A stretch of DNA of 64,000 nt from Candidatus Heimdallarchaeota archaeon (GCA_019057815.1 JAHLWR010000003.1:69248-133247), one strand, 5' to 3'. Positions 6,523-48,004 are shown, numbered from the stretch's first letter. Program-made: numbers and translations. Notes: generated by a model from the letters alone, not told the origin.

Positions 6523-6545
6523 AGAAAAATGTAGAATAGGGAAGA

Positions 6546-6776: not shown

Positions 6777-6862
6777 ATGTTACACCTTGTTCAACTAACT
6801 GAAGATATTGCCAAGTGGGATGTTTAAAAACATTTTGATGGCAAATTAGTGTTTTTGAGTTT

Positions 6863-14128: not shown

Positions 14129-17100
14129 CTATGTATAACTAATCCTTCCTTCTTTAGGAGTGAATATTTGTCCACTCTTTTGAAGTTGTTCGATAACTTT
14201 GATAACGAAATCTTCTTCAATATCTCTCTCTTTTGCTATTTCTTTTAATTTCTGCATCGTAATATAGTTATATTTGCTTTTAGTAATTTCATCTTTGATA
14301 ATATCAAGAATCTTATCCATCTTTGAACGTGAAACTGAAGTCATTCCTGATACCATATAATCAACAGTAACTTTTCCACTGATAGGATCTTTACCAGCTT
14401 GTTCTAAAGAGGTTTTAAGTAATCTGATAGCTGCTTCAACATGGTCTATTGTAACATCATTTTTTAGAGCCATTCTAGCTTGAGATTCTGATAATCTGAC
14501 TAAGGCTTCTAAATATCTAGGAGTAATAGCAATTTCTAATCCATCTGATTCCTTTCTTAATTCTAGATAATACTTTTCTATTCTTTCCATTGCTTCATCT
14601 GTAAGAACTGGATGTACATGTTGTTTTGAATAACTTATGTATTTGCGCAAAAGTTCCATAGAAATTGGGGGTTCAGCTTCTTCTAACAAATGACCTCGCC
14701 TTAATTCTAAGATATGACGAGCCATTTTAGTATCAAATTCAACCTCTGGTTCATCTTTAATTATGAATATTAGATCAAACCTAGAAAGGATAGTAGATGA
14801 AAGGTTAATATTTTCTCCAGGAGAGCGTGAAGGCTCATAGCGTCCAAAACGCGGGTTAGCAGCTGCAATAATAGCTGTTCGAGCGTTTAATTGGGCAATA
14901 ATTCCAGCTTTAGCTATACTAATACTTTGTTGCTCCATAGCTTCATGTATTGATGAACGGTCAACTTTATTCATTTTGTCAAATTCATCTATTGCAACTA
15001 CCCCTCTATCTCCTAATACTAATGCTCCTGCTTCTAATGTGAATTCTCCCGTATCTTGATCTCTAATTACAGCCGCGGTGTTATGTGTAACAAATCCATT
15101 TACAATAAAATTATGAGTTTCTGGTATTGACAAATCATAAACATATTCTTCTGTATTTTCAAACTCTTCAATTTGTGCAATCTCATCCCATAAAACATCT
15201 GAATTTGCTAATGTCTTTAATAACTCATATCTCTTCTGTAAATATTTGTGTTTTTCTTTTATCTTTTCAATTACGTTATCTATGTACTTTGTTATTTCCA
15301 GTGGTAAAACAATATTTTCAAGTTTTTTTAGCTTGATAATTATTTTTATTTGAATTGAGATATCCCTATTTTTTCTCATGAAAAAATCATAAATATTATC
15401 ATAATTGAGTCCAGTTTCTTTTTCTATCTCTTTTCTTTCTAATTTCTTATTTATTTCTGAAAATAATGTGCTTCGGACAGAGAAAGGTAATTTAATTCTG
15501 TGTCTTAACCAATTTGTATCAATTTTTTCTAGTATCTCTTTCAGACGTTTTTGAGATATTGCTTTATCGAAATTATCTTTGGAAAAAGCTCCATGATAAC
15601 CTGTCAAATCTCTACTACTATAATTGTAGAATATCTTTAGTTCATTTACCATTGAAAAGATTTGGGGTATGTTATCCAAATTTCGATGTTTCTGTCTGGT
15701 TTTTTCACATATTTCGTCTAGTTTCTCCATTTTACTAGAGTGCCTAAAACCAACAAATTCTCTAAATACTTTGAAATCTTCATTATTGCTAAATGCTATT
15801 TCATATTTCTCTAGTTTGCCTGTTATTTTAGTCCCATCTTTCTTAATTGATGTTTTTGGTTTTCTCACCCTTCTAAATGAAGCGATGTTAAGAGTTGATA
15901 GTGCATCTTGAATAAAATTTGCAAGCTTTTTGCTTGTTGTAGATATTCCGATGTGAGAAGAACTATTTTTTCTTACAGTTATCCATCCATCTGAATCATA
16001 TAATCCCTGAAGAAGATTCTTTAGATAAATTTCTGGATAAAATAGAATGTCCCAGATAGGTGCTATTGTGCTTGATTTAGGAGCTAATGTCAGGCCAAAA
16101 TAATTGAAAATATGATAAAGCAATTTGGACCAAATTCTATATTCTGCTGGCCTAGATTGTGTTTCTTTTGTTTTGCTAATTGTGAAACCTAGTTTTTTAA
16201 AGAATTGTTCAAAAGTATCCAATATCTCTTGCTGTGTATTAGACAATCCAATAGTAACACCACCATAACCCTCTGTTCTTTTATCAATTGATACCCGACC
16301 ATCACCCATTAATAGACCTAACATGTAGAACCATTCTTCATCTAAAGTTTTAGGAAGGAAAATAGTTTGACCTTTTTTGATCTGGAGTTCTAATATATCT
16401 GGGAGTTCATTCAGCAGATCTTTGTTTGCTAATTTACATAAGTTACCAAATTGTCTAAAACTTATTGAACCTCGTTTGCTTTTATCTTGCCAGTTTGATA
16501 TTGTACTCTCTGTAACCTTTAATATTTTCTCTATGTCTTTTATTGTATAAGAAGTGCTATGTTTCAATTCTTCAATAATTGTTGCAACTTTGTCTTCAAC
16601 AGAAGATAATGTAATAGTTCCTTTATAGATTTCAATAATTTCATATGATATTGGTACTTCTTTTCTTGTTATAATTGGTAATTTTCTCGTTGTAGCTACC
16701 CTATCTCCTTCTGTAAGGATGCTTGCATGTTTCCAAACTACTCCTTCATCCTTTGTTATTGAAAGAAGGCTAGTTTGAGGAGTGATTACAAGTTGTTTTC
16801 CTGTTCGTGAGGTTATTCTAATTAGACTCTTTGGAGGTTTAATTTTCCAAAATCTTGATATCGGTTGTTTATCTAAATGTAAATTCTTTGAATGGACAGC
16901 TAAATTTTCATTGCTAGAATTCTCAACATATTCCATTTGTTCATTATAATATAAGATATCGCCAGATTCAAATTCTTGTTCAACTATTTCAGAAATAGGT
17001 TTAATTTGATTATGAAGAAGAATTCGGCTATCACCAGAAACACAAAGACCAGCAGCTGTTGAGGCTTTTCCAGATGTCATTAGTCCTCTTGGTGCAAGTT

Positions 17101-18214
17101 TACATGCAAATTGTAAAATTTGACTCTTAGCAACTCCTGGATCGCCTATTATTAATAAATTAGATTCACCTCTTTGTTTCATCCCATCGGACGCTACTCT
17201 ACTTTCTCCACCAAAGAGAATGGTTGCTATGGCTTCTTTGATTGTCTCCATTCCGTATATCGAAGGTGCAACAGATCTTATTATCCTTCTATGAATACTT
17301 AAATCGCGGGATAATTCTATGATTTCTTTTTCTGTTTCTGGGTCTATATCGATTTCTTCATACTCTTTCTGTTGGGAAGAAATATAATTGACATCCAACC
17401 AAAGGTCAAAAATAGCTAGTTTTCCTTTCTTCTTTGGAGTTGGAGCTTTCATTCTCAAAATACCACTAACAACAGCTCGATCTCCTGCTCTGACAGCATC
17501 GACTAAATCTCCCACTAATCTTGCAGAAAGGTTTCTAGGAATTTGACCTGCTGGGAGTGTTTCAGGTCGTTCCTGAACTGTTATTGTCTGTAGATCTTTG
17601 TATGTAGATTCCTCTGAATTGAGTTTAAAGAAACCTTTCTTTCCACAGCTTGGATTAACACAGATATGTGGTTCCATATACATACCTCCTATTTGAGGGA
17701 CATAATTAATTTCACCGCAGCTCAAACACTGAAAAGAACCTTCAATAAGTAAAGGTTTGACAACACTCTGTCTAAGAACAATGCCTTCTACAGATATTAG
17801 TTTCCCTAAATGCACATTTCTAACCCTTCTCAAATCAACTTGATCAGGAATATTTGAAAAACGAACAACAAATGTTTCTTCACCTGTTGCATAAATTGGG
17901 TCTTCTATGGTTAATACTTCCTTTAATGCTCCATTAGCTTCTTTGAGAATCTCTTCAGGATTCTCTCTTAATTGTCTAGCTGATTCTGGGTCGTATCGAA
18001 GAAGATCATCATAACTTACAAAAAGTGACGTTAAACCTTCTAAAACCATTTTTTGAATTTGTTCTGTATATACTCTTCTTCCTTTATCATCCATATATCC
18101 TTGAAAAAAATCAGTAAACCTATCTATAGGCGTAGATTGCATGTCGATGTGCATTTTTTCCAACCTTAATTCTACAACTTTCCTTAGTTTATTAGTTTTA
18201 CTTTGTACTGACAA
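14129..18214 (-). CDS. mcm: MCM replicative helicase interrupted by one intein. 1361-aa precursor; the extein is 706 aa (N-extein 390 aa, C-extein 316 aa).
   Basis: N-terminal zinc finger CLSCG...CVNPSCG, Walker A IIGDPGVAKSQ, Walker B VVAIDEFDKM, arginine finger SRFDLIF, and a C-terminal wH. Confidence 0.9.
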   Translation of the reverse strand: MSVQSKTNKLRKVVELRLEKMHIDMQSTPIDRFTDFFQGYMDDKGRRVYTEQIQKMVLEGLTSLFVSYDDLLRYDPESARQLRENPEEILKEANGALKEVLTIEDPIYATGEETFVVRFSNIPDQVDLRRVRNVHLGKLISVEGIVLRQSVVKPLLIEGSFQCLSCGEINYVPQIGGMYMEPHICVNPSCGKKGFFKLNSEESTYKDLQTITVQERPETLPAGQIPRNLSARLVGDLVDAVRAGDRAVVSGILRMKAPTPKKKGKLAIFDLWLDVNYISSQQKEYEEIDIDPETEKEIIELSRDLSIHRRIIRSVAPSIYGMETIKEAIATILFGGESRVASDGMKQRGESNLLIIGDPGVAKSQILQFACKLAPRGLMTSGKASTAAGLCVSGDSRILLHNQIKPISEIVEQEFESGDILYYNEQMEYVENSSNENLAVHSKNLHLDKQPISRFWKIKPPKSLIRITSRTGKQLVITPQTSLLSITKDEGVVWKHASILTEGDRVATTRKLPIITRKEVPISYEIIEIYKGTITLSSVEDKVATIIEELKHSTSYTIKDIEKILKVTESTISNWQDKSKRGSISFRQFGNLCKLANKDLLNELPDILELQIKKGQTIFLPKTLDEEWFYMLGLLMGDGRVSIDKRTEGYGGVTIGLSNTQQEILDTFEQFFKKLGFTISKTKETQSRPAEYRIWSKLLYHIFNYFGLTLAPKSSTIAPIWDILFYPEIYLKNLLQGLYDSDGWITVRKNSSSHIGISTTSKKLANFIQDALSTLNIASFRRVRKPKTSIKKDGTKITGKLEKYEIAFSNNEDFKVFREFVGFRHSSKMEKLDEICEKTRQKHRNLDNIPQIFSMVNELKIFYNYSSRDLTGYHGAFSKDNFDKAISQKRLKEILEKIDTNWLRHRIKLPFSVRSTLFSEINKKLERKEIEKETGLNYDNIYDFFMRKNRDISIQIKIIIKLKKLENIVLPLEITKYIDNVIEKIKEKHKYLQKRYELLKTLANSDVLWDEIAQIEEFENTEEYVYDLSIPETHNFIVNGFVTHNTAAVIRDQDTGEFTLEAGALVLGDRGVVAIDEFDKMNKVDRSSIHEAMEQQSISIAKAGIIAQLNARTAIIAAANPRFGRYEPSRSPGENINLSSTILSRFDLIFIIKDEPEVEFDTKMARHILELRRGHLLEEAEPPISMELLRKYISYSKQHVHPVLTDEAMERIEKYYLELRKESDGLEIAITPRYLEALVRLSESQARMALKNDVTIDHVEAAIRLLKTSLEQAGKDPISGKVTVDYMVSGMTSVSRSKMDKILDIIKDEITKSKYNYITMQKLKEIAKERDIEEDFVIKVIEQLQKSGQIFTPKEGRISYT
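15080..17044 (-). mobile_element. Intein within mcm. 655 aa with LAGLIDADG homing-endonuclease motifs, inserted between Walker A and Walker B.
   Basis: Starts with Cys after ...GKASTAAGL and ends ...VTHN followed by +1 Thr (TAAVIRDQ). LAGLIDADG-like motifs LLGLLMGDGRV and LQGLYDSDGWI. Boundaries verified codon by codon on the minus strand. Confidence 0.8.
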
Positions 18215-18295: not shown

Positions 18296-19651
18296 ATGTT
18301 GACTAAAATGACTTACACTAATACTCACTTAGCCTTACAAGGAATACTGATGTGGATTCTTTTATCAAAAAAATCTAAAGAATATTACAAAGAGCATAGA
18401 TGGGAGTTTCTTTTAGTTAATTTATTTGCAATTTTACCTGATATAGATCTTCTGTTCGGTCTTCACCGTTCATATACTCATTCACTAATTCTGCCACTAG
18501 CTATTCTCTTATGTTGTTTAACGGTAGGGAAGATAGGCGGAGGATTCTCGAAAATAAGTGAGAAGGGGTTAAGGATTATCCGATTTATTAAGTTAGCTTG
18601 CTATATGTATTTGCTTCATATTGTTCTTGATATTGGTTGGGGACCTGTAATGTTTTTCTGGCCATTAGATACTAATTATTATGATTTATCGGTGTTTTTA
18701 AGGCTTGAAAACGTTAAGTGGTTATTTCTACCGATGACTTTTATCGGTTTAATACCATCGTGGAAAGTTTATACTTATTCAGAGGGACATAGTCAGTTTT
18801 TCATCAATTTAAGTCAAGAAGAAAGACAGTCGATTTATGGTCAGTATTTGGATTTTAAAATAGAGTATTTTATTTTTCATGTAGTCATTTTAATAGCTTG
18901 GATTATAGTCATTTTGCTCCCTGTATTTAAAAGGAAACGGCAAAAAGAAAAATCAAATTTTACTACAAATTTAGTTAAGGGCTTCAAACAGATTACAAGA
19001 GAGACAACTCTTGTTGGAGTATTAATACTAGCATTAGGTCTAATTATAGGTCCTTCGATAGGCAGAAGTTATAGTGTATCACATATAGTGAATATAGATT
19101 ACGTTTCAAGTAATACTCTTTTTGATCCAACATTGGGAGTCATTGTAGATAGGGGAGTATATGAAAACACAACATTAAGCTATAAATGTAAAACAGGATT
19201 AGTAGACTACAATGCATCTGTTATGTTTGTAGAAAAAGAAACGTTCTATAATTTCTTCAATTCGTTTTCTAATATAAGCTCTGAATATCAAGCTGGAAAT
19301 ATATCCTATACAGAGTTAATTGTCTCATATTCAGTTCTAGTAGATGGTGTAAAAAACGCAAGTAACGAAGTTTATCAATTAATTGGGGAACAGAACCAAA
19401 TTGGCTTAAATTTTACTTATGATTCTTCTTCAGAAGAAAGTACACTCTATTTCTTAGCTCTTATCGATGAATGGAATTGGACAGAATCGTATGTATATAG
19501 ATGTACGTTAACTATATCACACACATTAGACAGGAGTATAGCTCAGATTGAAGGTGCTGTCCTAGTTTCTTTGGCGTGTGTAATAATCTTATTAGACCAA
19601 TCCTTTAGTGTTATAAGAATACGTAAAAAAATAGATGAAAAAATAAGTTAA
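18296..19651 (+). CDS. Membrane protein: N-terminal YdjM-like membrane-bound metal-dependent hydrolase domain fused to a large extracytoplasmic domain with many N-glycosylation sequons.
   Basis: LPDIDLLFGLHRSYTHS...HIVLDIGWGP (PF04307-like His/Asp pattern), multiple TM helices, then an NxS/T-rich soluble region. Confidence 0.4.
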   Translation: MLTKMTYTNTHLALQGILMWILLSKKSKEYYKEHRWEFLLVNLFAILPDIDLLFGLHRSYTHSLILPLAILLCCLTVGKIGGGFSKISEKGLRIIRFIKLACYMYLLHIVLDIGWGPVMFFWPLDTNYYDLSVFLRLENVKWLFLPMTFIGLIPSWKVYTYSEGHSQFFINLSQEERQSIYGQYLDFKIEYFIFHVVILIAWIIVILLPVFKRKRQKEKSNFTTNLVKGFKQITRETTLVGVLILALGLIIGPSIGRSYSVSHIVNIDYVSSNTLFDPTLGVIVDRGVYENTTLSYKCKTGLVDYNASVMFVEKETFYNFFNSFSNISSEYQAGNISYTELIVSYSVLVDGVKNASNEVYQLIGEQNQIGLNFTYDSSSEESTLYFLALIDEWNWTESYVYRCTLTISHTLDRSIAQIEGAVLVSLACVIILLDQSFSVIRIRKKIDEKIS

Positions 19652-20655
19652 GAGGCCATTTCTGTTGTCAATTCTACTAGGTCTGTATTTTCATTTAATT
19701 CTCTCAAAATTACGTTTGATAATATAGCTATTTCATCTACAAAAGGCATCCTTCTATAGGTTCTAAAATAAATTACTCGGAAATCTTTTGCTTTTTTGAT
19801 AAAGGGAAGAGGGTTCTTACCTGCTGTTCTTTCTAAATCGCTGATAAGATAAATTATACGTTCAGGAGCTGATACCTGTTCTAACTCATCAAGTGCCAGT
19901 TCAAGAGCTTCAGAAATGTTAGTTTTTCCTCTACTTTCTAAATCAAGGATTTTTCTAACTATCTCATTAGGATGAGTTGCTTCAGCCATTTTCTTGAGTA
20001 ATTGAGCTTCTGAATCAAACCCTATGATTGCCAAATTGTCTCTTTTAACTGTCAAAGAGAGTACTGAAGCAGTTAAAACTATTTGATGTATATGTTGTAA
20101 AACACTAAGACTTTTGTCTATACATATAACAATGCTACGTTTTCTTTTTTCAGGTTCTCGAACAACTATATTATCATAAGTGGGCAGAATGTTACCACTA
20201 CTTAACAACCGTTGCATAGTCATTTCGAGATCCCATTGATCTCCAGGTTCATAATTCTTAAAACGAGCTACAGATGAAGCTATTCCTTTAAGGTAGATGA
20301 GCTTAGCTTTTTCCGTTATAAATGGTATAAGTTTATCAAGAATTTCCTTGCGAATTTTAAAACTCAAATGTTTTTTTGTGAGAGAATAAAGTTGTATCAG
20401 ATCCTCTTCAGATATTTTTTCAAGGATTACATTATCAATATCCATTTCATTTAATGTCTTAGCGACAAAATTGGGATAATTAGTTGCAATTAATCTCAAC
20501 CCTTCCAAATTTCTAGTTTCTGCTGCTTTTTGAGTCAGTTCAGCTATACGTGCCATATCTTCTTTGTAATGCCCTAGTTCTAATGAGATATCATTAACTA
20601 ACATACGAGCTTCTATATTTGAAGGAAAGTGTAACAACGGTTCATTCTCTATCAT
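19648..20655 (-). CDS. von Willebrand factor A (VWA) domain protein, partner of the MoxR ATPase.
   Basis: MIDAS motif ICIDKSLSV (DxSxS) and downstream IIGFDSEA. 335 aa, immediately downstream of MoxR on the same strand. Confidence 0.65.
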   Translation of the reverse strand: MIENEPLLHFPSNIEARMLVNDISLELGHYKEDMARIAELTQKAAETRNLEGLRLIATNYPNFVAKTLNEMDIDNVILEKISEEDLIQLYSLTKKHLSFKIRKEILDKLIPFITEKAKLIYLKGIASSVARFKNYEPGDQWDLEMTMQRLLSSGNILPTYDNIVVREPEKRKRSIVICIDKSLSVLQHIHQIVLTASVLSLTVKRDNLAIIGFDSEAQLLKKMAEATHPNEIVRKILDLESRGKTNISEALELALDELEQVSAPERIIYLISDLERTAGKNPLPFIKKAKDFRVIYFRTYRRMPFVDEIAILSNVILRELNENTDLVELTTEMAS

Positions 20656-20675: not shown

Positions 20676-21584
20676 TTATCCTTTTTTTCTTATTATACGC
20701 TCATCTTCATATGTAGAAAGAATTTTAGAAACAATTTCTTCGAGAACTGTTTGTTCAGATTTTTGACTCGTTGTAGTACATCTGACTTTACGTGAGTGTA
20801 CAGCAATAACATGCGAAATCAATATATTTTCATCTATATCTTGATTTTGAGGATGTAATTCAACTAATTGAATAGCTCCTCTTACAGTAGAAGAGATATC
20901 AAGTTCAGGGTGGTTAATTGTGGTTTGAACTATATCGCACGAGATTTGAATAAGAAGATCATCACTTGAACTAGTTCGAAGTTTAACAATTTCTATCATC
21001 TCTTCTCTAGATTGGTGATTTACGTTTATCCATATGCAACGATCATAAAACGCTCTAGGGAGAGGATTCGTGGCTACTGTGTCCTTTGGATTAAAAGTGA
21101 ATATGGGTATGAAACCTACTTCAGCTTTGATTGTACCCAGTCTGGGAATTGTGATTAATCTTTCATCCAAAGCTGATAATGCAGCGTTTATGGTCTCAGA
21201 AGGAGCTCGATTGGTTTCATTGAAGAAGAAAATACCCCCTTTTTCCATTGCTTCAGTTAAAGGACCAGGAATAAAACTTTCTTTAGAAAAACCTTTCTCG
21301 AGAACTAATGGTGGATCATACCAGCCTTTTAATTTTATGGCTGTAAGATTATCATCTCCATCAACACGAATGAAAGGACGTTCTAAACAATCAGAGACAG
21401 CTTTTGCCATTTCAGTTTTACCAGTTCCTATGGGACCTTCAATAATTATTGGGAGATTTTTCTCAATAGCTCTAAACATTAAACGAAGCTCTTCGCGACG
21501 ACCAATTATAAGAGTAAAAACTTTTTCCAATGAGTCGTCTAAAGACATACTAGAATTGGTCATTACTAGAGGAACATAGAACAA
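20676..21584 (-). CDS. MoxR-family AAA+ ATPase.
   Basis: Walker A GPIGTGKT and Walker B/sensor FFFNETNRAPSETINAALSALDER. 302 aa. Confidence 0.75.
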   Translation of the reverse strand: MFYVPLVMTNSSMSLDDSLEKVFTLIIGRREELRLMFRAIEKNLPIIIEGPIGTGKTEMAKAVSDCLERPFIRVDGDDNLTAIKLKGWYDPPLVLEKGFSKESFIPGPLTEAMEKGGIFFFNETNRAPSETINAALSALDERLITIPRLGTIKAEVGFIPIFTFNPKDTVATNPLPRAFYDRCIWINVNHQSREEMIEIVKLRTSSSDDLLIQISCDIVQTTINHPELDISSTVRGAIQLVELHPQNQDIDENILISHVIAVHSRKVRCTTTSQKSEQTVLEEIVSKILSTYEDERIIRKKG

Positions 21585-21675
21585 AAATAAAACTCTTGTC
21601 GTTTAAGCTGAAAAAGAAAGAAGAAAGAAAAAGAAAGGAAGGTTAGTAATTTTTAGCGGATTTTTCAGGATTGAC
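21583..21675. repeat. Repeat R1 (copy 1 of 3). It contains a 33-bp core, a purine-rich tract, and a copy of the last 33 nt (stop included) of the MFS gene at 24302.
   Basis: aaaaataaaactcttgtcgtttaagctgaaaaa at 21583 recurs at 23024. ttagtaatttttagcggatttttcaggattgac at 21643-21675 differs at 2 positions from the 24302-24334 copy. Confidence 0.8.
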
Positions 21676-21882
21676 AGATAGAGAGAATAATAAGAAGTGA
21701 GACGATAATAAACATAACAATATCAACAGTAGATGAAAAAGAGGAGTTAATAGAAAGGGTAAAGCTAGCAGAAGAATATCAAGAGGAAGGAGGAAAAGTG
21801 GCTTTGAGGGTAGTAACATTTGCGTTCAAAGAAAGAGAAGAAATAATCAAACTAAGCCATAAAAACTAGATTCTTCATATAA

Positions 21883-22761
21883 CTATTTCATTTTTTTACC
21901 ACAATTCGAACAGAATTTAACTGAATCTCTATGTTTAGAACCACAGTTTATACAAAATTTAGAATTAGTATCCTCCTTAAAAGTGTCTTGGTGAGGATGG
22001 AGTGTTTGAGAAAAAGAATTTTGTTTTCCTGTTTTTATTTCATTAAAATCGTTAGATGTTCGATAGATACCAAGTAAGAATAAACCATAGTATATAAAAC
22101 TAGTAACATATGTGAGTATATAATAAGTAAACTGAGAAGTATTAAAGCTCCAGTTACTAAATATTGTGTTACTAAGACTATTTTGGAGGATATTAATGAA
22201 AAGAATATAGATTTGAGAATAGAGGAGAAACCTATCAGCTCGGTTGTCGATAATTTGCTTTTCTTCCATCTCCGCAAATAAATCCTTCATGAACCAAAAA
22301 GCAAATATAAAAGGCACAGGAGTAATACAGATTAAAATGTCATAAACAAGACCCATTCTAAGGATGCTAAAAAGCATTGTTATGAACTCAAAAGTAGCAG
22401 CAAAAATCAAGGAAATAGTTATCTTATTTGATTTAAACTCTAGCTCTGGGAATGCTTCTTCAAGTTTGTTAAAATCAGAAGCTAATAAATAGAAAAGAAT
22501 GAACAGTGTAGCATTGATGAAATATACAGCGTAGAATATATAGAAATAAATGTTGTTAATTGAAGTAAATTCAGGAGAAGTAGGTTGAACAAAAGATTTA
22601 GTGCTAACAATCTGATAAAGACGAATGATAAACTGAATGAGAGTTCTGGAAAAGGTTATAATAAGTATGATCCCAATTGTGTTAAGATGTCTTTTGAAGT
22701 TTCTTTTAGCTATTGACAAGAGATCAAGAGGTACATGTGTAGGGTGATACATACTAATCAA
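21883..22761 (-). CDS. Polytopic membrane protein with a C-terminal double-CxxC zinc ribbon. It lies inside the cassette bounded by repeats R1 and R2.
   Basis: 292 aa with multiple hydrophobic helices. C-terminus CINCGSKHRDSVKFCSNCGKKMK. Confidence 0.4.
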   Translation of the reverse strand: MISMYHPTHVPLDLLSIAKRNFKRHLNTIGIILIITFSRTLIQFIIRLYQIVSTKSFVQPTSPEFTSINNIYFYIFYAVYFINATLFILFYLLASDFNKLEEAFPELEFKSNKITISLIFAATFEFITMLFSILRMGLVYDILICITPVPFIFAFWFMKDLFAEMEEKQIIDNRADRFLLYSQIYILFINILQNSLSNTIFSNWSFNTSQFTYYILTYVTSFIYYGLFLLGIYRTSNDFNEIKTGKQNSFSQTLHPHQDTFKEDTNSKFCINCGSKHRDSVKFCSNCGKKMK

Positions 22762-22924
22762 CTTACAATTAGAAAAAGTGAACTATTTAAGCTTATTTAA
22801 CGATTTTTTGAGTTTTCTTAATGTGCAATAGGTAGTTAACAGTAATACTCATCAAAGTATCCTTCCACTTCAATATTAATAAATTCTTACTGATTCGAAA
22901 TTTTCTTTGAACAACAACTTTGTT

Positions 22925-23023
22925 GTCTTTTTATGTCCCTTTTACTATATTGAAGTATGAAAAAGCAACAGCTGAAACAGTGGATATTACTATGAATATC
23001 ATCCCAAAGGATTCTAACATAAG
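22925..23023 (-). pseudogene. About 100-bp internal fragment of an MFS transporter gene, paralogous to the mid-region (about 24.72-24.82 kb) of the gene at 24302..25120, joined directly to the R2 repeat.
   Basis: 22953-23030 matches 24748-24810 with about 6 mismatches. The antisense ORFs 22920..23132 and 24594..24851 share KYEKATAETVDITMNIIPK only because of this duplication. Confidence 0.7.
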
Positions 23024-23083
23024 AAAAATAAAACTCTTGTCGTTTAAGCTGAAAAAAGATAACAAGAAAGAAAAAAGAGAGAG
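23024..23083. repeat. Repeat R2: the same 33-bp core plus purine-rich tract, exactly 1441 bp downstream of R1.
   Basis: Identical 33-mer aaaaataaaactcttgtcgtttaagctgaaaaa, followed by agataacaagaaagaaaaaagagagag. Confidence 0.8.
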
Positions 23084-23475
23084 TATACTACATACAATCT
23101 TAATTATTACCTGTTTATTGAGAAACTATTAAAAGAAATAGAAACTAGAGAATAACATCGAAGTAATTATCTTACTTCTCCTGGAGGGATTGGTTTATTA
23201 TGGCTACCTACTCTTTGTAAATATTTTCCAGAGTTTGTACAATGATGGTGTTTACTAAATCTAGGAACAAGAACACAAAGTATACCTAAATAAGTTGATG
23301 TAATTATTGTGTGAAATTCAGGTGTAAATGGAAGTAAAATTCTGTCTCTAGCAAGATTAACAATTTGATTTTAAATTTTATCTCTTTGCTTATAATCCAA
23401 AGGATATACTTCTTTGTTGTGGTCCATACTTGAGTATCGAGTGTTTTTTATACAAACTGAAGTCTACTTTGTATT

Positions 23476-24216
23476 ATGGATGAAGAGATTACCCAAGTAT
23501 CTAAGTTTCTTTTAGAATTCAATACATATTTGAATATATCATCAATCATATCAATAATGGAATTTGAAGGTATTAAACTTGAAATTGAAAAAATTGAGAC
23601 TTATCCAACTACTTTAACTGTACAGAATGAAGAACTCCAACGAGCTTTCGATACCTATAATAAAACTTTGACCATAGAAGGCTATATAAAATATAAGAAT
23701 AGGTTTGAATTGATTCATCTAAATACATTATTAGAAGCATATCTCTTTAATTGTTGCAAATATCATATAGAACAGCATAAAGATATTCTAGATTGTACTA
23801 AAATATTATTTAAAGATCTTAGAACAAAAGATACTGAAACAATAATTGATGAAAAAATTGAGAAATATCTTAATGATGCAATAATGTATGGAGATTACAC
23901 AGATATCTTTGAAAAGATAAAAAGAAAACTGAAATTGAATCAAATTGAAAGAATTCTTTCTGATGAGGTGGTTAGAGAATTAAATGAATTGAGTGCCAAA
24001 CGAAATTTAGTTTTGCACAGAAATGGAAGAATCGATAGAAAATATATACAAAAGATACACGATGATAATTCAGAAATTGGAGATAAACTACAAGTAGACA
24101 GCGAGTATATAAAACATATCAGATTAATAGTTATGACTTTTGCTATTGATTTTGACAATATTATTTGTGAATTGTACCCTAATCTAAAAACAAGTTTAAC
24201 ATATTATTATACTTGA
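23476..24216 (+). CDS. Hypothetical all-alpha protein with a candidate HEPN-type Rx4H motif, possibly an Abi-like RNase. It lies in the cassette bounded by R2 and R3.
   Basis: 246 aa, K/E/L-rich. ...LSAKRNLVLHRNGRIDRKY gives R-x4-H near the C-terminal third, as in HEPN families. No other recognisable domain. Confidence 0.3.
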   Translation: MDEEITQVSKFLLEFNTYLNISSIISIMEFEGIKLEIEKIETYPTTLTVQNEELQRAFDTYNKTLTIEGYIKYKNRFELIHLNTLLEAYLFNCCKYHIEQHKDILDCTKILFKDLRTKDTETIIDEKIEKYLNDAIMYGDYTDIFEKIKRKLKLNQIERILSDEVVRELNELSAKRNLVLHRNGRIDRKYIQKIHDDNSEIGDKLQVDSEYIKHIRLIVMTFAIDFDNIICELYPNLKTSLTYYYT

Positions 24217-24257
24217 TGAATTTCAATAAGCTTTTCTATTAAGCCTAGAAAAGATAC

Positions 24258-24334
24258 AATAAAACTCTTAGAATCTAAAAGAAAAGAAAAAGAAAGGAGT
24301 TTTAGTAATTTTTAGCAGATTTTTCAGGCTTGAC
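24258..24334. repeat. Repeat R3: a degenerate core (aataaaactctta...) plus purine-rich tract plus the authentic 3' end of the MFS gene.
   Basis: caataaaactcttagaatctaaaagaaaagaaaaagaaaggag followed by ttagtaatttttagcagatttttcaggcttgac. Confidence 0.7.
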
Positions 24335-25120
24335 CATAATTATTACCCCGAGTCCTATGACCATCATTATTCCGATAATCAACATAGCCCAACCATATGT
24401 TTTGTAGTTCCATTTATCATAAAAGACAATGAAAGCAAGACTCCATATTATTGGGCCTACAGCTGCAGAAACTTTACCGGATAACTTGGAAAAACCAAAA
24501 TATTCGCCAAATTTTTCCTTAGGAGCTAATGCAGCAACCATAGCTCTCTGAGCAACCCATGTACCACCTAAAGCAGGTCCAGCGAGTACACCCATGAGAA
24601 TTATCATGATAAAAGGGAAATTGAAACCAGTGTCTATAGGAGCCCAAATGAAAATACCTAAGATTCCAAGAGCTAGTGCTACAAACCAAAGGATTCCAAC
24701 TAAAATGAAAGCATTCTTAGCTCCTTTTTTATCAGCAAAGACACCGATGAAATATGAAAAAGCAACAGCTGAAACGGTGGATATTACTATGAATATCATA
24801 CCAAAGGTTTCAGACATAAGAAAACCGTCGCGAATTAAAGGGAACATATAAATCACTATCACATTCGCAACATCAACAAAGAGGAAATATCCGATAATAA
24901 AGATAAACATCTCTCTATGACGAGTAATCTCTTTAAAAGTACGTCCAAGACTCTTGAAAGTATCCTTTATTAGAACACCAGCAGAAGGTCTGTCTCCTTT
25001 TTTCTGTCTTTCTTTGACAAAGATGAATTCTACCCAAAATGTTGACTTTGTAACAATGGATTTGGAAAATTTCATCAAGTTCAATTCGACTTTTAATGAA
25101 TCTTCATCGGAGGAATTCAA
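24302..25120 (-). CDS. MFS-type transporter, C-terminal six-helix half only. It is 5'-truncated, so it may be a remnant or a half-transporter.
   Basis: 272 aa. It begins in what looks like the central cytoplasmic loop (VLIKDTFKSLGRTFKEITRHREMF) followed by about six TM helices. There is no room upstream for the N-terminal half, since the HDAC gene starts at 26463 and the + strand ORF 24954..25373 overlaps. Confidence 0.5.
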   Translation of the reverse strand: MNSSDEDSLKVELNLMKFSKSIVTKSTFWVEFIFVKERQKKGDRPSAGVLIKDTFKSLGRTFKEITRHREMFIFIIGYFLFVDVANVIVIYMFPLIRDGFLMSETFGMIFIVISTVSAVAFSYFIGVFADKKGAKNAFILVGILWFVALALGILGIFIWAPIDTGFNFPFIMIILMGVLAGPALGGTWVAQRAMVAALAPKEKFGEYFGFSKLSGKVSAAVGPIIWSLAFIVFYDKWNYKTYGWAMLIIGIMMVIGLGVIIMVKPEKSAKNY

Positions 25121-25373
25121 TTATATTAGCAATTTTTCTGAATTGAATACAACATCGATTTCATTTGATTTATTATTTGAAGAAGAAACTAGACTCTTTT
25201 TCATTATCGAAAATGCTGAATTAATCTTAGGTGGAATAAATGGTACCGATAATTGTGATATATCTCTTGTTTTGACATCTGAAGAGGAAAGTGATTATGT
25301 TTTTGGCATAATTATTGGTGTTATAATTCTCTTATTCATAGGTTTAGCCGTCTATTTAAGGAAGAGAAAATAA
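25056..25373 (+). CDS. Small putative type-I membrane glycoprotein (NxS/T-rich ectodomain, one C-terminal TM helix, KRK tail). Its start is uncertain and it overlaps the 5' end of the truncated MFS gene antisense.
   Basis: C-terminal FGIIIGVIILLFIGLAVYLRKRK. Several N-x-S/T sequons. Starts at 24954, 25023 or 25056 are all possible. Confidence 0.25.
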   Translation: MDLENFIKFNSTFNESSSEEFNYISNFSELNTTSISFDLLFEEETRLFFIIENAELILGGINGTDNCDISLVLTSEEESDYVFGIIIGVIILLFIGLAVYLRKRK

Positions 25374-25410
25374 ATTTTTTTCAACATTCTTTTTTGATTT
25401 TTTCAAGATT

Positions 25411-26463
25411 TTAAAGAATCCAATAATCTTTTTGAGCTTTTTTTACTAAATTAATCATATCTATAGTGTGTTCAGTTATATTTTCTATTTTTACATCGTC
25501 ACACAAAGAAGATTTTTCACCTAAAATCCCTTTTAGGTATTTCTCGCTGACCGTTGCTAGCTTTTTCAAATAGTAACCTCCTTCTAGAACGTTTACTATT
25601 TTTCCACCAGTTAATTTTTTTGCTGTTTCTTGAATCATGTAACCTGCAGCTTGGAATGCTTCTGCTGTGATGTTTAAAATCCCTGCAGGGTCACCCTTCA
25701 ATGCATCAAATCCAATTGAAACAAGAACAATTTCGGGCTTATATTGTTCCACTATTTGTAAAGCTGTTTTCAAAGCGTAAAGCCAATCAACATTTTCAGT
25801 ATTTGGTAGAAGAGGTATATTTACTGTGAATCCTTTTCCTTCTTTTATTCCCACTTCTGAAGGGTATCCTGATCCTGGATATGAGTATTTAGGATGAGCA
25901 TGTAATGACAAATAAAGAACATCCTTTCTGTGATAGAATATGTGAGCAGTACCATTACCAAAATGATGATCAATATCTAATATAGCTATTTTCTTGATAT
26001 TTCTTTCACTAATTAGCCATTCAGCAGCAATAGCGATGTTATTAAAAAAGCAGAAACCTCCACAAGAATTTACTTCAGCGTGATGTCCCGGTGGTCGAAC
26101 TAATGCAAAACTTGTTTTTGATATACCATCAACTACCACTCTAGTTGCTTTTATTGTTCCTCCAACAGCTAACTTAGCTGTAGTGAACGAATGCTCATTC
26201 ATGGAAGTATCAAGAGATACCATACCTCCTCCTAGTTCTGAAACTCTTTTAATACGATAAACAAGATCCGGAACATGAACTCTGAGTATCTCATCCTCTT
26301 CAACTAATTCAGGGTCATCGATTTTAATTGTTAGTGAACTTTCAGATTTCAGTTTCTCTACTCCCTCAAGTATAGGATTTAGCCTTTCTGGACACTCTGG
26401 GTGTAAAGTATCCATTTTATGATCCTTGTAACGTTCTGAGTAAATGACTATAAGATCATACAT
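25411..26463 (-). CDS. Histone-deacetylase / acetoin-utilisation (AcuC) family deacetylase.
   Basis: VRPPGHHAEVNSCGGFCFFNN and ILDIDHHFGNGT are class I/II HDAC active-site signatures. 350 aa. Confidence 0.75.
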   Translation of the reverse strand: MYDLIVIYSERYKDHKMDTLHPECPERLNPILEGVEKLKSESSLTIKIDDPELVEEDEILRVHVPDLVYRIKRVSELGGGMVSLDTSMNEHSFTTAKLAVGGTIKATRVVVDGISKTSFALVRPPGHHAEVNSCGGFCFFNNIAIAAEWLISERNIKKIAILDIDHHFGNGTAHIFYHRKDVLYLSLHAHPKYSYPGSGYPSEVGIKEGKGFTVNIPLLPNTENVDWLYALKTALQIVEQYKPEIVLVSIGFDALKGDPAGILNITAEAFQAAGYMIQETAKKLTGGKIVNVLEGGYYLKKLATVSEKYLKGILGEKSSLCDDVKIENITEHTIDMINLVKKAQKDYWIL

Positions 26464-26616
26464 TTAGTTTAACTAGGTCATAGAACAATTAATCTTTTCG
26501 TATTAATCTATCAGCAGAACATTTTGTTTGTTAATTGAGAATAAAAATAGAAACTACAAACTTATATATGGTTTTTTTGAAATCAGAATTATTGTAATAT
26601 CGATGGAGTTAGAAAA

Positions 26617-27153
26617 ATGAGTTTCTTGGTTGATGTTGGACTAGCGCTACTCTTTGCTGGACCTATCTTCTTTTCCAATGCAATTCCTTCAGTGCTTGGA
26701 GGAGGTTATCCTATAGACTCTTATAAGAATTTCTTCGATGGAAAGAGAATTCTTGGCGATCACAAAACACTGCAAGGATTAATTAATGGAATACTTTTTG
26801 GTTTTTTCACAGGTGTGATTATCTGGTATACCGTTGGTGAAACTATGAATGCAAGGTATGAACATCTTGGTTTCCAATACCCATTCTGGATTGGCATATT
26901 GTTTGGTTGGGGGGCTAACTTTGGTGATTTGTTAGGGTCATTCATAAAACGAAGAATAAATATAAAATCTGGTGGTAAATTTCCTGTTTTTGATCAACTT
27001 GGTTACATGGTTTTTGGTATTCTCTGGGCATGGCCTGTGTATAGAGCTATTCCATGGCAATTCTGGGTTTCTTTGTTGATTTTTGCTCCCTTACTTCATA
27101 TATTATCTAATCTTTTTGCTTATGCTATTAAAGCAAAAGACGTACCATGGTAA
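26617..27153 (+). CDS. carS: CDP-archaeol synthase (CarS)-like small integral membrane cytidylyltransferase.
   Basis: 178 aa, about 5 TM helices. DGKRILGDHKTLQGLING resembles the CdsA/CarS cytidylyltransferase signature. Confidence 0.45.
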   Translation: MSFLVDVGLALLFAGPIFFSNAIPSVLGGGYPIDSYKNFFDGKRILGDHKTLQGLINGILFGFFTGVIIWYTVGETMNARYEHLGFQYPFWIGILFGWGANFGDLLGSFIKRRINIKSGGKFPVFDQLGYMVFGILWAWPVYRAIPWQFWVSLLIFAPLLHILSNLFAYAIKAKDVPW

Positions 27154-27260
27154 ACTACTAGTTCATATAGAAAAAGAGCTATTTAATACACTGTCGATAA
27201 AGTCAAATTTATAAAGGAAATTACGTATAGAAAATTGTACTAACTTAAAAGTCGTTTTCA

Positions 27261-27584
27261 ATGAAAGTAGATTCAGATAGAAAGGATTGCATTCTAACTT
27301 GTCGTTCCTTTATGTGCAGCAAACGAATGTTGAAAATAAAAAGAGATGGAGAAAGTAAAAGCTTTATTTGTCGCTTGGATGGATATGAATGTTTAGGATA
27401 CAGCTGCAGTTATGCTGAGTGTAGAGACAGATTACTTAGTGACGATGGAAGATGTTTAAAACCTGTTCAGAAGGATCAGAAACATCTTAGGGTAAAGAAT
27501 CTTGCATTTGAGCAACACAATAATAAGTTTCAACAAAATCTAGATGATAGAATTCAAAAGAAAATAAGCAGAAAGTTGAAATAA
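27261..27584 (+). CDS. Cysteine-rich small protein (8 Cys in the first 65 residues, basic C-terminal tail). First gene of a co-directional trio.
   Basis: Cysteines at positions 10, 14, 19, 37, 44, 49, 54 and 65. The spacing is not a canonical CxxC ribbon. Confidence 0.3.
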   Translation: MKVDSDRKDCILTCRSFMCSKRMLKIKRDGESKSFICRLDGYECLGYSCSYAECRDRLLSDDGRCLKPVQKDQKHLRVKNLAFEQHNNKFQQNLDDRIQKKISRKLK

Positions 27585-27649
27585 GGCTATGACTAAATCT
27601 TAAATATCTATAATGTAAAAGGTCTATAAGAATAAGATGTGATGTAAAA

Positions 27650-28429
27650 ATGATTCCTAATAGTTCTGGAACAGGTCAAAAAAAGCTTTTAACTTTCGGA
27701 ATACCAAGTCTTGATGAAATTTTAGGGGGAGGAATACCTCCTGGATCAAATGTTCTAATAGAAGATGCAATAGGTGCTGAAGCGGAGCCTTTTGTTCTAC
27801 AGTTTCTTGCTGAAGGCCTTAAAGCAGGTGAATACGGTTATATTATGTCGACAGAACACCCATACGACTATTATGTCGACATATTGAATGGGATAGGTGT
27901 TAACCCTGATATGCTATCAGCAACTGGGAGATTGCAATATATTGATGCTTTTAGCAACCCTTTTGGATATGCAGATAAGAGAGATTCACACCAACACACT
28001 GTAAACGATTTAAGCCAACCAAGAGAAATTAACGAGACAATAAGAAGAGCGTTTTTACACGTCCAAAATCAAAAAATCATGAAAAGAGGTATAGTCTTAT
28101 CACTTTCATCGATAATTTACGCATCCAACGAATCGAAAAATATCTTATTTTCTTTTCTACAAAATAGATTAGCAAGCAATAAAAATGATGGGTCTGTAAC
28201 AATTTTCTTACTGCATTACGATGCTCATGAACCGTTATTGGTAAGAGCAATAGAACATAATTGTGATGCAACTATAAGAGTATTAAAAGCTAAAACAGAT
28301 AATGATCGACCTATTACAGAAGTCCGAGTTGTTAATGTAAAAGGCAAACCTGAATTAGTAGGAGAACCAGTACTTTTCGAGTTCATAAGTGGAAAAATCT
28401 TACCCTATTATGAAGGTGAAAAGTTCTAG
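27650..28429 (+). CDS. KaiC/RadA-like RecA-superfamily domain protein with a degenerate Walker A, so predicted ATPase-dead.
   Basis: FGIPSLDEILGGGIPPGSNVLIEDAIGAEAEPFVLQFLAEG: the G-PGTGKT position reads AIGAEAEP, so the P-loop lysine is absent. Confidence 0.5.
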   Translation: MIPNSSGTGQKKLLTFGIPSLDEILGGGIPPGSNVLIEDAIGAEAEPFVLQFLAEGLKAGEYGYIMSTEHPYDYYVDILNGIGVNPDMLSATGRLQYIDAFSNPFGYADKRDSHQHTVNDLSQPREINETIRRAFLHVQNQKIMKRGIVLSLSSIIYASNESKNILFSFLQNRLASNKNDGSVTIFLLHYDAHEPLLVRAIEHNCDATIRVLKAKTDNDRPITEVRVVNVKGKPELVGEPVLFEFISGKILPYYEGEKF

Positions 28430-28449
28430 ATAACTCTTCATCCTTTTTT

Positions 28450-29055
28450 TTGATGGGAATTAAAGATAGGTTTAATAATCAATATGAAAAGAATAACACG
28501 AGAAACTTGATGTTTGATTACCTATTTAAAACGATAATTGTTGGAAATCCAGGAGTAGGGAAAACATCAATAACACTCCGATTTGCTACTGGAGTATTTA
28601 AATCAAGATATCTCCCAACAATAGGCGTAGAATTCTCAGTAAAAGATATTGAAGTGAAAGGACAGCACATAAAATTACAATTATGGGATACAGGAAGTCA
28701 TGATCGTTTCTCTTATATTAGACCAATGTATTATAGAGGAAGTTATGGTGTTCTGGTAGTTTGTGATTTAGCAAATGAGCTGACACTTAAAGAACTCGAT
28801 AAATGGTTCACAGAAGTGTACTCCAATACTGAGGAAGTGATACCAGCTATATTGATAGGTAATAAAGCTGATTTGGGTGATAAGCGCTTGATATCGACAG
28901 AAGAACTTTTGCAATATGCTTCAGAAAAGAAAGACGAGTACAAATTAGCTGAAATACCAGTCTATGAGGTTTCAGCAAAATCAGGGCAAAATATTAATGA
29001 TATTTACTATCGCTTAGCAGATTTAATGATTAAAAAATCTAATGAATCGGAATAA
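28450..29055 (+). CDS. Ras-superfamily small GTPase, Rab-like. The true start may be the internal Met at 28510 (MFDYLFKTIIVG...).
   Basis: G1 GNPGVGKTS, Rab-like TIGVEF, switch II LWDTGSHDRF (canonical WDTAGQERF), YYRGS, G4 GNKADL, G5 SAK. No C-terminal prenylation Cys. Confidence 0.75.
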   Translation: MMGIKDRFNNQYEKNNTRNLMFDYLFKTIIVGNPGVGKTSITLRFATGVFKSRYLPTIGVEFSVKDIEVKGQHIKLQLWDTGSHDRFSYIRPMYYRGSYGVLVVCDLANELTLKELDKWFTEVYSNTEEVIPAILIGNKADLGDKRLISTEELLQYASEKKDEYKLAEIPVYEVSAKSGQNINDIYYRLADLMIKKSNESE

Positions 29056-29164
29056 ATAACTTATAACTCTGCTTCTTCTCATGTTATTAATAAAAATCCA
29101 AATTTTCATTTTAATGAGGTTGTATGCAAATATTTAAGTTATTTTTACTCATTATAGTATATAT

Positions 29165-29747
29165 AATAAATTTAGATTGTTTTAGGTGAAAAAACTATGG
29201 CTAAAATAGTTGATGTCCGTATAAACGGAAGAGGAGGGCAAGGAGCTGTGACAGCTTCTCGTCTATTAGCAGAAGCAGCTATCATAGAAGGACAATATGT
29301 TCATGCTTTCCCTAACTTCGGTCCTGAAAGGGCAGGGGCTCCAGTTACGTCATTTTCAAGAATCAGCCCTGAGCCCTTTACAGAGAAAATAGAGGTTTAT
29401 AATCCAGATATCGTGGTTGTAATAGATTCTTCTTTGTTGGGTGATGTTCAAATAGCTGAAGGTTTAAAACCTGGAGGTATAATTATTTGCAACTACGAAG
29501 GGAAATTGGAATCGCTAAAACACTATTTTGAAGGAGTAGATTCTAAAATTTATAAGATATCTGGAACAAGAATTGCTAGGGAAGAGCTGGGAATAAATAA
29601 ACCAAATATGATAATGCTAGGTGCATTGTTAAAAGTTGTTCAGATTGTTAAACTTGAAAGTCTAATCAAAGTAACTAAAGAAAGATTCAAAGGTGTAATT
29701 GGTGAAAAAAATTCTAAAGCTATGAAAAGAGCATATAATGAGGTGAC
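29165..29747. repeat. Duplicated segment, copy A, about 583 bp. It covers the gamma-subunit gene (porG) plus about 30 bp of leader. The internal ~500 bp are identical to copy B at 30295..30877.
   Basis: Direct comparison shows differences only at the edges (first ~30 bp and last ~35 bp). Spacing 1130-1131 bp. Confidence 0.85.
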
Positions 29748-29766
29748 AGGCAATGGTACAATCTAA
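29197..29766 (+). CDS. porG: 2-oxoacid (pyruvate):ferredoxin oxidoreductase gamma subunit, orphan duplicate copy.
   Basis: MAKIVDVRINGRGGQGAVTASRLLAEAAI...; 189 aa. The C-terminus diverges (…VTGNGTI) and no delta subunit follows. Confidence 0.8.
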   Translation: MAKIVDVRINGRGGQGAVTASRLLAEAAIIEGQYVHAFPNFGPERAGAPVTSFSRISPEPFTEKIEVYNPDIVVVIDSSLLGDVQIAEGLKPGGIIICNYEGKLESLKHYFEGVDSKIYKISGTRIAREELGINKPNMIMLGALLKVVQIVKLESLIKVTKERFKGVIGEKNSKAMKRAYNEVTGNGTI

Positions 29767-30022
29767 TGTCTGGTTCATAAAAAAGCAGAGTTGCTCAACC
29801 AACCTGTCAGAATAGCGTCAGAAGAACTATAAACAGAGAAGCTAAATTTAGGAGGTTTAGAATATAAACTAGATTAGTGAATTATTAGTGTTTAAAGATT
29901 TTAATCCTATTTTAGGTCCCCTAAATGTTATTTTCTCTCGGGAAAACTATATTTAAAAATAACCTATTTACGGAGAATATCACAATAATTTCTTTAAACA
30001 TAAGAAAGTTTCCGGTGATAAA

Positions 30023-30316
30023 ATGGTATATAAATTTCCAAGCAAAGGATGGATTGAATACTATAAGGACATTCTAAACAGTGAAAAGGGCAAACCATGG
30101 CAAAAAGCTGCTAAAGCGTGGGAAGGCGACTTTCTATTTGTTATAGAACCTGATGAAAAATTAAAGCAAGGGAACACTTTCTACATAAATCTATGGCATG
30201 GAGAATGTAGGAAAGTAGACAGCTCAGAGGATGGAAAAAAATTACCGGAATCTGAGTTTGAGTACAGAGGAATACTTACTCAAGATAGCTTAATTAATAA
30301 ATTTAGATTATTTTAG
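30023..30316 (+). CDS. Hypothetical 97-aa protein between the two gamma-subunit copies.
   Basis: ORF with no recognisable motifs (…WQKAAKAWEGDFLFVIEPDEKLKQGNTFYINLWHGECRKV…). Confidence 0.3.
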   Translation: MVYKFPSKGWIEYYKDILNSEKGKPWQKAAKAWEGDFLFVIEPDEKLKQGNTFYINLWHGECRKVDSSEDGKKLPESEFEYRGILTQDSLINKFRLF

Positions 30317-47901: not shown

Positions 47902-48004
47902 TTTGGGACATGCTTACAAACGATATTTTCTTTTTTTCTTTTCTTTTTAATGAAATAAACAAATATATTAATGAGAATAAATAACATATTGAAGTGAATG
48001 CTAA

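Follow-up and report, generated by a model that had tools for sequence, protein, structure and literature searches.

Strain-variable insertion and repeated spacer DNA between an MFS gene and a MoxR gene of a Heimdall-group archaeon

How accessory genes enter a conserved housekeeping neighbourhood, and whether a mobile-element enzyme takes part, is the question raised by a 64,000-nucleotide (nt) stretch of Candidatus Heimdallarchaeota DNA (GCA_019057815.1 JAHLWR010000003.1:69248-133247), here called the window. Within it, two genes separated by direct repeats R1, R2 and R3 lie between a truncated MFS transporter gene and a gene for a MoxR-type ATPase. The original prediction explained this arrangement as repeated site-specific insertion at the 3' end of the MFS gene, with attachment-site (att)-like repeats, in a variable defence or accessory island. 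In this study, we compared the locus with related loci, 23 in number and all from Heimdallarchaeota metagenome-assembled genomes (MAGs); the source itself is a Heimdall-group Asgard archaeon. We found that the repeat unit is the native spacer between MFS and MoxR, triplicated, and that this spacer is an insertion hotspot. As the process behind it we favour, with modest confidence, homology-anchored illegitimate recombination between strains, which would have displaced the old 3' end of the MFS gene.

Repeat units and the native MFS-MoxR spacer

A repeat search of the window recovered the three predicted repeats, all on the minus strand: R1 (21580-21675), R2 (23016-23083) and R3 (24258-24334). 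They were detected as a 36-nt core pair (21580-21615 and 23021-23056, 97%) and a 52-nt pair (21624-21675 and 24283-24334, 90%), next to a 77-nt pair (22951-23027 and 24748-24824, 92%) formed by MFS-internal DNA. In R1, the core (21583-21615) is followed by a purine tract (21616-21642), after which the final 33 nt of the MFS gene appear as a copy, stop codon included (21643-21675). R2 consists of a tract, reaching to ~23083, and a core (23024-23056) identical to that of R1; it stops directly after the predicted TATA box and is fused via TTTT to MFS-internal DNA. The joining of R2 to an internal MFS fragment had been predicted, and its limits were found to be 22951-23027. In R3, the MFS gene has its true 3' end; the terminator tract follows, and then a diverged core that ends at the TATA box. 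This core is degenerate, 13 nt shorter, and retains only AATAAAACTCTT. A search for further copies of the core, which the original prediction had called for, found the exact 33-mer in the 64 kb only at R1 and R2, with matches in 0 of 100 shuffles, and the exact 12-mer AATAAAACTCTT only at R1, R2 and R3. Scans of viral contigs and of Joint Genome Institute (JGI) metagenome contigs with the core pattern gave no match.

The same sequence is present once in the closest species representative (locus L003, ~93% nucleotide identity), where a full gene for a 486-amino-acid (aa) MFS protein is followed by the spacer and then by MoxR. The spacer of L003 measures 58 nt to an upstream TTG and 79 nt to the MoxR ATG. 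Read in the direction of transcription, it begins directly after the MFS stop with a T/C-rich tract, which we take to be a putative MFS terminator from general knowledge of archaeal oligo-T termination, and continues to ...ACGACAAGAGTTTTATTTTT, ending 19 nt before the MoxR ATG. In the window, the MoxR gene (20676-21563, minus strand; Pfam AAA_5 and AAA_3) is the conserved right-hand flank. For this gene, the ATG at 21563 is the most probable start; it gives a protein of 295 aa and is called in the same way in relatives; with this start, the R1 core sits 19 nt upstream of the gene. In 19 of 19 more distant relatives in which the region was readable, a near-identical motif, ACAAnAAGAGTTTTAATTTC, precedes the MoxR ATG by 25-35 nt, irrespective of the upstream gene. 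Because such a motif precedes MoxR in all 19, the core is predicted to be the B recognition element (BRE)/TATA promoter of MoxR, and the purine tract would be the putative MFS terminator viewed on the opposite strand. R1 is a complete copy of the spacer, still joined to MoxR, and is colinear with the MFS end, spacer and MoxR of L003 (93.8% over 276 nt); from the tract onward it is 99.1% identical to two other loci, L034 and L036. These results indicate that the R unit is not a mobile-element site but the native MFS-MoxR spacer, present three times.

Strain variation, the divergent MFS allele and the cargo

Close strains were defined as the members of the MoxR 90%-identity cluster, 13 in number. 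The MFS-MoxR site is empty, with 79-80 nt between the two genes, in six loci with four distinct sequences (L003, L035, L037/L038 and L040/L041), and three loci (L034, L036 and L039) hold unrelated cargo at the same spacer. The insert of L034/L036 is 7.8 kb long and contains four genes, three of them for NosD/beta-helix proteins; it was placed within the T/C tract without a long repeat, and the sequence to its right is 99.1% identical to the window. L039 has a 1.36-kb insert with a gene for a 263-aa beta-helix protein (cargo 1015-1806), flanked by a 103-nt direct repeat (95%) in which the final 33 nt of MFS are followed by the spacer. Because empty sites and differing cargo coexist among close strains, the MFS-MoxR spacer is a true strain-variable insertion hotspot. 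The polymorphism expected by the original prediction was thus found; of its variable site with att-like repeats, the variable site stood and the att site did not, as the repeat is the native terminator-promoter spacer.

The cargo at L034 584-7670, L036 1-2992 and L039 1015-1806 encodes NosD/right-handed beta-helix proteins (860, 623, 544 and 263 aa) and includes a 147-aa open reading frame (ORF); the L039 protein is 30-39% identical to its L034 counterparts. In more distant lineages, MFS and MoxR are 1.6-3.8 kb apart. This interval is occupied by a conserved gene for a 460-aa beta-lactamase-like protein in L009-L011, L013, L015, L017-L019 and L024, some distant lineages also hold a second MFS gene (410 aa) and a 188-aa gene, and only remnants are left in L016 and L021. 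These intervals were rejected as cassettes, since the same conserved genes occur throughout, which points to differential loss.

The MFS gene of the window (24302-25120, minus strand; ATG22/UMF1-type) encodes only the C-terminal half of the protein, covering positions 229-479 of 482 of the Pfam ATG22 profile, so that the truncation described earlier was confirmed. In relatives, the full-length protein has 480-486 aa. The truncation corresponds to a ~1.04-kb deletion relative to relatives (7404-8449 in L003), and its junction at 25023-25028 shows 6-nt microhomology, ATTCAT. Removed by this deletion were ~245 N-terminal MFS residues, the divergent promoter region and the N-terminus of a 194-aa neighbour. 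A small antisense membrane ORF had been reported across the 5' end of the truncated gene. This ORF is present (139 aa, 24954-25373, plus strand), but it is not a new overlapping gene; it is the remnant of a conserved, divergently transcribed gene for a 194-aa signal-anchored protein, is 88% identical to the 194-aa ORF of L003, and has full-length counterparts in L003, L035, L037 and L038.

The remaining MFS sequence is divided by a sharp step in divergence. The 158 nt at 24871-25028 differ by 0.6-1.9% from relatives and represent the resident allele. The 569 nt at 24302-24870 are 15.6-16.2% diverged from five close strains, which differ mutually by just 0.2-6.6% across the same stretch. In the comparison with L003, the 158 nt that adjoin the deletion junction contain 1 mismatch and the 569 nt beyond them contain 92, and the step was repeated against the four other close strains (Fisher p = 1.3e-9). 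Synonymous divergence (dS) of the window MFS is 0.58, compared with 0.15-0.29 in flanking genes. Because its changes are mainly synonymous, with a ratio of nonsynonymous to synonymous divergence (dN/dS) of 0.11, and because the step is sharp, the 3' part of the window MFS is a functional foreign allele from a more distant lineage and not a product of decay; a mere decaying pseudogene was rejected on the same grounds. R3 sits on this divergent block. The orphan internal MFS fragment beside R2 (22951-23027, 77 nt, minus strand; about residues 313-338 of the 486-aa protein) matches L003, L035 and L037 at 75 of 77 nt (97.4%) versus 71 of 77 (92%) for the window's own MFS, and it shows the L003 state at all four of the four sites where the window MFS differs. 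Judged by these sites, the fragment is a remnant of the resident, L003-like allele.

Between R1 and R2 lie 157 nt without a matched source and a segment with a zinc-ribbon membrane-protein gene. The first, filler 1 (21676-21832), carries an open C-terminal gene fragment on the plus strand and has CTATCT at its R1 end, and no match to it was found in the window or in any locus. It was tested as degenerate MFS sequence, which was not supported, and as a decayed R copy, which did not rise above shuffles (225/1000). The second segment (21833-22943, minus strand) includes a gene for a multi-pass membrane protein (21883-22752/22761; Pfam Zn_Ribbon_1), together with the region upstream of this gene and, from a convergent neighbour, the final 11 codons. 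Over 1111 nt it is 94.2% identical to L027/L028, and it is 72% identical to L029-L032; its homology is limited by the upstream spacer on one side and by the point 11 codons into the convergent gene on the other. The related genes of L027-L032 sit in other chromosomal contexts, one of them in the MAG DXJF01, where the MFS-MoxR site is empty. The zinc-ribbon gene is an ordinary gene of the lineage, and a scan of viral contigs with its protein found no relative. In L029, a TnpB/Cas12f-like gene (5692-7260) lies ~2.7 kb upstream of the zinc-ribbon gene; none is near the window copy.

Between R2 and R3, a HEPN-family segment (23405-24217, plus strand) contains a gene (23476-24216) for a protein of 246 aa, preceded by 70 nt of upstream sequence of its own. 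Its sole close homologue is on one Logan contig with different neighbours (86.6% identity). The 246-aa protein has no Pfam or PADLOC match of its own, and 167 remote homologues were detected. In the comparison of 43 homologues, no column is invariant except R176, N177 and H181, an RNxxxH arrangement, so that the catalytic Rx4-6H motif is present. PF18735 (RiboL-PSP-HEPN) is matched by 10 of the 43 and the PADLOC model RTasHEPN by 9 of the 43, and the protein is all-alpha, as is the HEPN fold. A Foldseek search of the PDB with the HEPN model returned only insignificant helical-bundle matches, and a sequence profile search of the PDB returned nothing. The earlier HEPN-like assignment was upheld by the invariant motif and the PF18735 matches, and the protein is a predicted RNase of the HEPN family without a partner gene. 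On its left side is filler 2 (23084-23404, 321 nt), with a broken minus-strand ORF for which neither a homologue nor a Pfam match was found. This ORF (23084-23430), divergent from the HEPN gene, reads MDHNKEVYPLDYKQRDKI, a stop and 67 further codons; it could be the remnant of a partner gene. On the right side, filler 3 (24218-24257, 40 nt, no homologue) bears a hairpin (24231-24238 and 24246-24253) 15 nt after the HEPN stop and beside R3, with a perfect 8-bp stem and a 7-nt loop, CTTTTCTA...TAGAAAAG. The three fillers have no matched source, and two of them hold broken or partial ORFs. Since the homology to relatives stops within neighbouring genes or at their margins, the cargo consists of ragged pieces of chromosomal DNA and not of precise cassettes.

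Junctions, mechanism and competing explanations

All three junctions for which both partners are known show microhomology of 4-6 nt. These are ATTCAT at the MFS deletion, TTTT(T) where the R2 core meets MFS-internal DNA (...GAGTTTTATTTTT followed by CTTATG...) and an apparent CTTCA between the orphan MFS fragment and the zinc-ribbon upstream region. No integrase, transposase or recombinase domain was found by Pfam in the two cargo proteins, in the L034, L036 and L039 cargo, or in any ORF of 150 aa or more up to ~12 kb away on each side, in agreement with the earlier statement that such a gene is lacking here. The left junctions of the inserts differ among strains (L003 coordinates ~9217, 9240 and 9251) and are spread over up to ~35 nt.

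Similar structures were found twice more in the same window. The porG gene, for the POR gamma subunit, is duplicated in tandem (29145-30882; copies of 189 and 184 aa, near-identical over ~29160-29745 and 30291-30876), the copies being separated by a 545-nt insert with a 97-aa ORF (30023-30316) to which no Pfam family corresponds; L003 and L037 each have one porG only. The 3' end of GrpB forms a 197-nt direct repeat (46267-46463 and 47708-47904, 95%), made up of the last 150 nt of the gene plus 46 nt of spacer. Enclosed by the two copies is a 1244-nt insert that holds a membrane ORF of 135 aa and a C-terminal fumarase fragment of 91 aa. The GrpB architecture is like that of MFS-MoxR. Because the window holds these two further duplication-flanked inserts, the insertion process is not specific to the MFS-MoxR site. 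Start-to-start spacing is exactly 1441 nt in both the 21580/23021 and the 46267/47708 pair; the two repeat units have no sequence in common, and the equal spacing is probably a coincidence.

In the explanation that we favour, the 2.66-kb insert would be a mosaic made by host recombination without a site-specific recombinase, and every joining of foreign or ectopic DNA would have added a duplicate of the spacer. DNA of a diverged strain, carrying the MFS 3' part, R3, the HEPN gene and R2, would have entered the cell and recombined homologously within MFS, with a crossover near window position 24870. Its other end may then have been joined via TTTT to resident MFS DNA 46 nt downstream of the crossover, displacing the old resident MFS 3' part and spacer downstream as orphans, namely the MFS fragment and R1. 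Later, the middle of the orphan copy would have been replaced by a 1.27-kb chromosomal piece with the zinc-ribbon gene, apparently via CTTCA, leaving the 77-nt and 33-nt orphans. The 1.04-kb microhomology deletion that removed the 5' half of MFS would be a separate and later event. We infer from the present arrangement the order of these events and the structure of the donor, including the R3/R2 duplication. Selection may also have played a role: only insertions that duplicate the spacer would persist, because both the MFS end and the MoxR promoter would stay intact.

Several observations weigh against this explanation. The hexamer CTATCT directly precedes both R1 and the right-hand repeat of L039 (window 21676-21681, L039 1918-1923), and the two repeats have an identical first position, although their cargo is unrelated. 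By a rough estimate, chance would give such a shared boundary with a probability of ~1e-5, and random illegitimate joins are not expected to repeat it. Either the junction is old and was inherited by both strains, the cargo having turned over and been lost precisely and repeatedly by recombination between the repeats, or it was set by a site-determined mechanism. The donor arrangement, MFS 3' part-R3-HEPN-R2, was not found in any locus, and natural DNA uptake or cell-to-cell DNA transfer is not known in these archaea. The 33-nt MFS end does not discriminate between the models, with 4 mismatches to L003 in R1 and 3 in R3. As regards the shared boundary, each right copy resembles the left copy of its own genome, the stop being TAA in both window copies and TAG in both L039 copies. 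Window cargo and L039 cargo have no DNA in common; local alignment of their ends did not exceed shuffled controls, and no shared arms were seen beyond the 6 nt. Directly upstream of CTATCT in L039, the 14 nt TTAAACGTATAAGA differ from the promoter core at a single position (13 of 14 identical), which hints at a decayed third R copy, although the test was not significant. A decayed extra R copy in the 40 nt upstream of the right-hand repeats was rejected, as it did not rise above shuffles (824/2000 in the window, 270/2000 in L039).

The shared boundary speaks for site-specific integration, in which an R unit of ~100 nt would serve as attB/attP for a tyrosine or serine recombinase acting in trans, its gene lying elsewhere in the genome or on a helper element, and two now-immobile cassettes would have entered at the MFS 3' end. 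The unrelated L039 cargo between long direct repeats, the presence of filled and empty alleles together among close strains, and the restoration of the gene end by the repeat, as in integrative elements, are in line with it. We nevertheless consider it unlikely, since neither the variants nor their surroundings yielded an integrase, the left junctions vary, R2 is fused to MFS-internal DNA, L034/L036 took up their insert inside the tract without a long repeat, and no element arms are conserved beyond 6 nt. In addition, its core would be a host promoter, that of MoxR, the same architecture recurs at porG and GrpB with other repeats, and the described Heimdall elements are reported at tRNA genes (PMC8813620). 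A broader proposal holds that Heimdall-group archaea have a general gene-adding route, without an element-encoded recombinase or with a trans-acting one, that targets a gene 3' end plus spacer. The R unit would be att-like with a left boundary fixed 33 nt before the MFS stop, and R-bearing circles would excise and re-integrate, each cassette inheriting a copy of terminator and promoter. The duplication-flanked signature at three loci in one 64-kb window counts toward this route, which we regard as improbable. Capture of promoterless or terminator-bounded cassettes for anti-virus defence, in an integron-like array or defence island, is largely refuted and very improbable. One cargo protein is a predicted HEPN-family RNase, and its homologues include the RTasHEPN matches described above. 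However, there is no intI-like gene, an inverted-repeat search found no attC-like hairpins at the cassette ends, and the cargo genes lie in opposite orientations, each with its own conserved upstream region. PADLOC was negative for both cargo proteins, the cargo of other strains encodes surface-type proteins of the NosD/beta-helix kind, and the neighbours are MCM, GINS, Hel308, CTP synthase, POR, HDAC and CarS. Thus the integrase or integron-like mechanism and the defence island of the original prediction were not sustained, the former because of the missing integrase, the R2 fusion inside MFS, the differing left junctions and the L034/L036 insert without a long repeat.

A single complex replication error with serial template switching, of the fork stalling and template switching (FoSTeS) or microhomology-mediated break-induced replication (MMBIR) type, would give duplications and templated inserts in one event. 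It would account for the microhomology at every resolvable junction, for the alternation of short local pieces (77, ~60 and 93 nt) with ectopic pieces in direct orientation, and for the near-identical porG copies with an insert at their junction. Yet the MFS 3' part and R3 come from a ~16% diverged allele, which implies DNA of another lineage and not the cell's own template; the R2 tract and R3 core are too different from R1 for a single recent event, and other strains hold different cargo at the same spacer. This explanation is rather doubtful. Finally, the repeats might have caused a mis-join in assembly, so that the cargo would not truly lie between MFS and MoxR. Two Logan contigs of run SRR14803094 reproduce the window without a single difference, one over 21586-23053 and the other over 23027-29247. 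These short-read contigs end inside the repeated core, a repeat of 27-36 nt, so that all junctions are independently reproduced except the order across the core. The window order is nevertheless the sole linear path that uses each contig once, R1 and R3 are bordered by unique sequence on both sides, and L039, an independent assembly, shows a similar repeat-flanked insert. We therefore regard an artefact as extremely improbable. Compared with these alternatives, homology-anchored illegitimate recombination remains the reading to which we incline.

Related systems, genomic setting and significance

Homology-facilitated illegitimate recombination with 3' displacement has been proposed for rhs loci and for the orphan effector-immunity arrays of the type VI secretion system (T6SS) of V. 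cholerae (PMC5361080 and references therein). By analogy, the process at MFS-MoxR would be of this known kind, a displacement array, here documented in an Asgard archaeon. Each has its homologous anchor within a conserved gene, which shows here as the MFS allele switch, and a microhomology-based illegitimate join at the other end. In both, the old gene 3' end is displaced downstream as an orphan, here the 77-nt fragment and the 33-nt end, and successive events build an array that is split by gene-3'-end repeats, with cargo from other strains. Unlike in the rhs/T6SS arrays, the anchor is a housekeeping MFS transporter gene and not a toxin gene, the repeat includes the promoter of the downstream gene, and the cargo consists of unrelated accessory genes and not of cognate immunity genes. 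The anchor here was also half-deleted later, and DNA uptake is undocumented in this lineage.

Integrative elements at gene 3' ends are similar to the MFS-MoxR locus in their flanking direct repeats that restore the target 3' end, in the occurrence of empty and filled strains, and in one boundary that recurs in a second strain. For a Heimdallarchaeum virus and for aloposons, tRNA genes are the reported targets (PMC8813620). In contrast to such elements, the locus has no integrase, its target is the end of a protein-coding gene plus a promoter, its left boundaries vary, one junction lies within a coding region, and its cargo consists of ragged 1-3 kb fragments without replication or packaging genes. 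Campbell-type single-crossover insertion would likewise duplicate a shared segment directly around the insert, with hybrid copies and, in principle, precise loss. However, no circular R-bearing intermediate was seen, and the crossover (L003 8601/8602) lies outside the segment duplicated at R2; a linear one-sided event fits the crossover position better. Integron cassettes are also small, mainly one-gene units arrayed at one site and separated by repeats, but here there is no IntI and no attC structure, the orientation is mixed, the genes have their own promoters, and the repeat is host spacer DNA.

The setting of the insert is conserved. On the minus strand, HDAC (25411-26463), the truncated MFS gene, the zinc-ribbon gene, MoxR and VWA (19648-20655) follow one another, and the order CarS-HDAC-MFS-MoxR-VWA-YdjM is kept in the 23 loci of relatives. 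The neighbouring genes, namely NurA, CTP synthase, GINS, a Hel308-type helicase, MCM, POR, HDAC and CarS, serve replication and central metabolism; the surroundings are core housekeeping genes in conserved synteny. CarS is encoded in the window, and the adjoining Logan contig carries a gene for an Arf-family GTPase. The MCM gene (14129-18214) and the gene for the TPP-binding POR subunit (32404-34482) each contain an intein with a LAGLIDADG domain. MCM has 1361 aa with one intein here, and that of relatives is called with 1874 aa and two inteins.

Asgard archaea are the archaeal lineage closest to eukaryotes. The locus gives a base-level view of how accessory genes enter and turn over within a conserved housekeeping neighbourhood of such an archaeon. 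Recombination between diverged strains together with microhomology joins appears sufficient for this, so that a mobile-element enzyme would not be needed, and the duplicated terminator-promoter spacer would keep the flanking genes working. For annotation, att-like repeats at gene 3' ends call for caution, as they can be displaced host DNA. If the density of three such structures per 64 kb is typical, this process could rank among the major sources of the many non-tandem repeats, and of the gene-content flux, that have been reported for Heimdall-group genomes.

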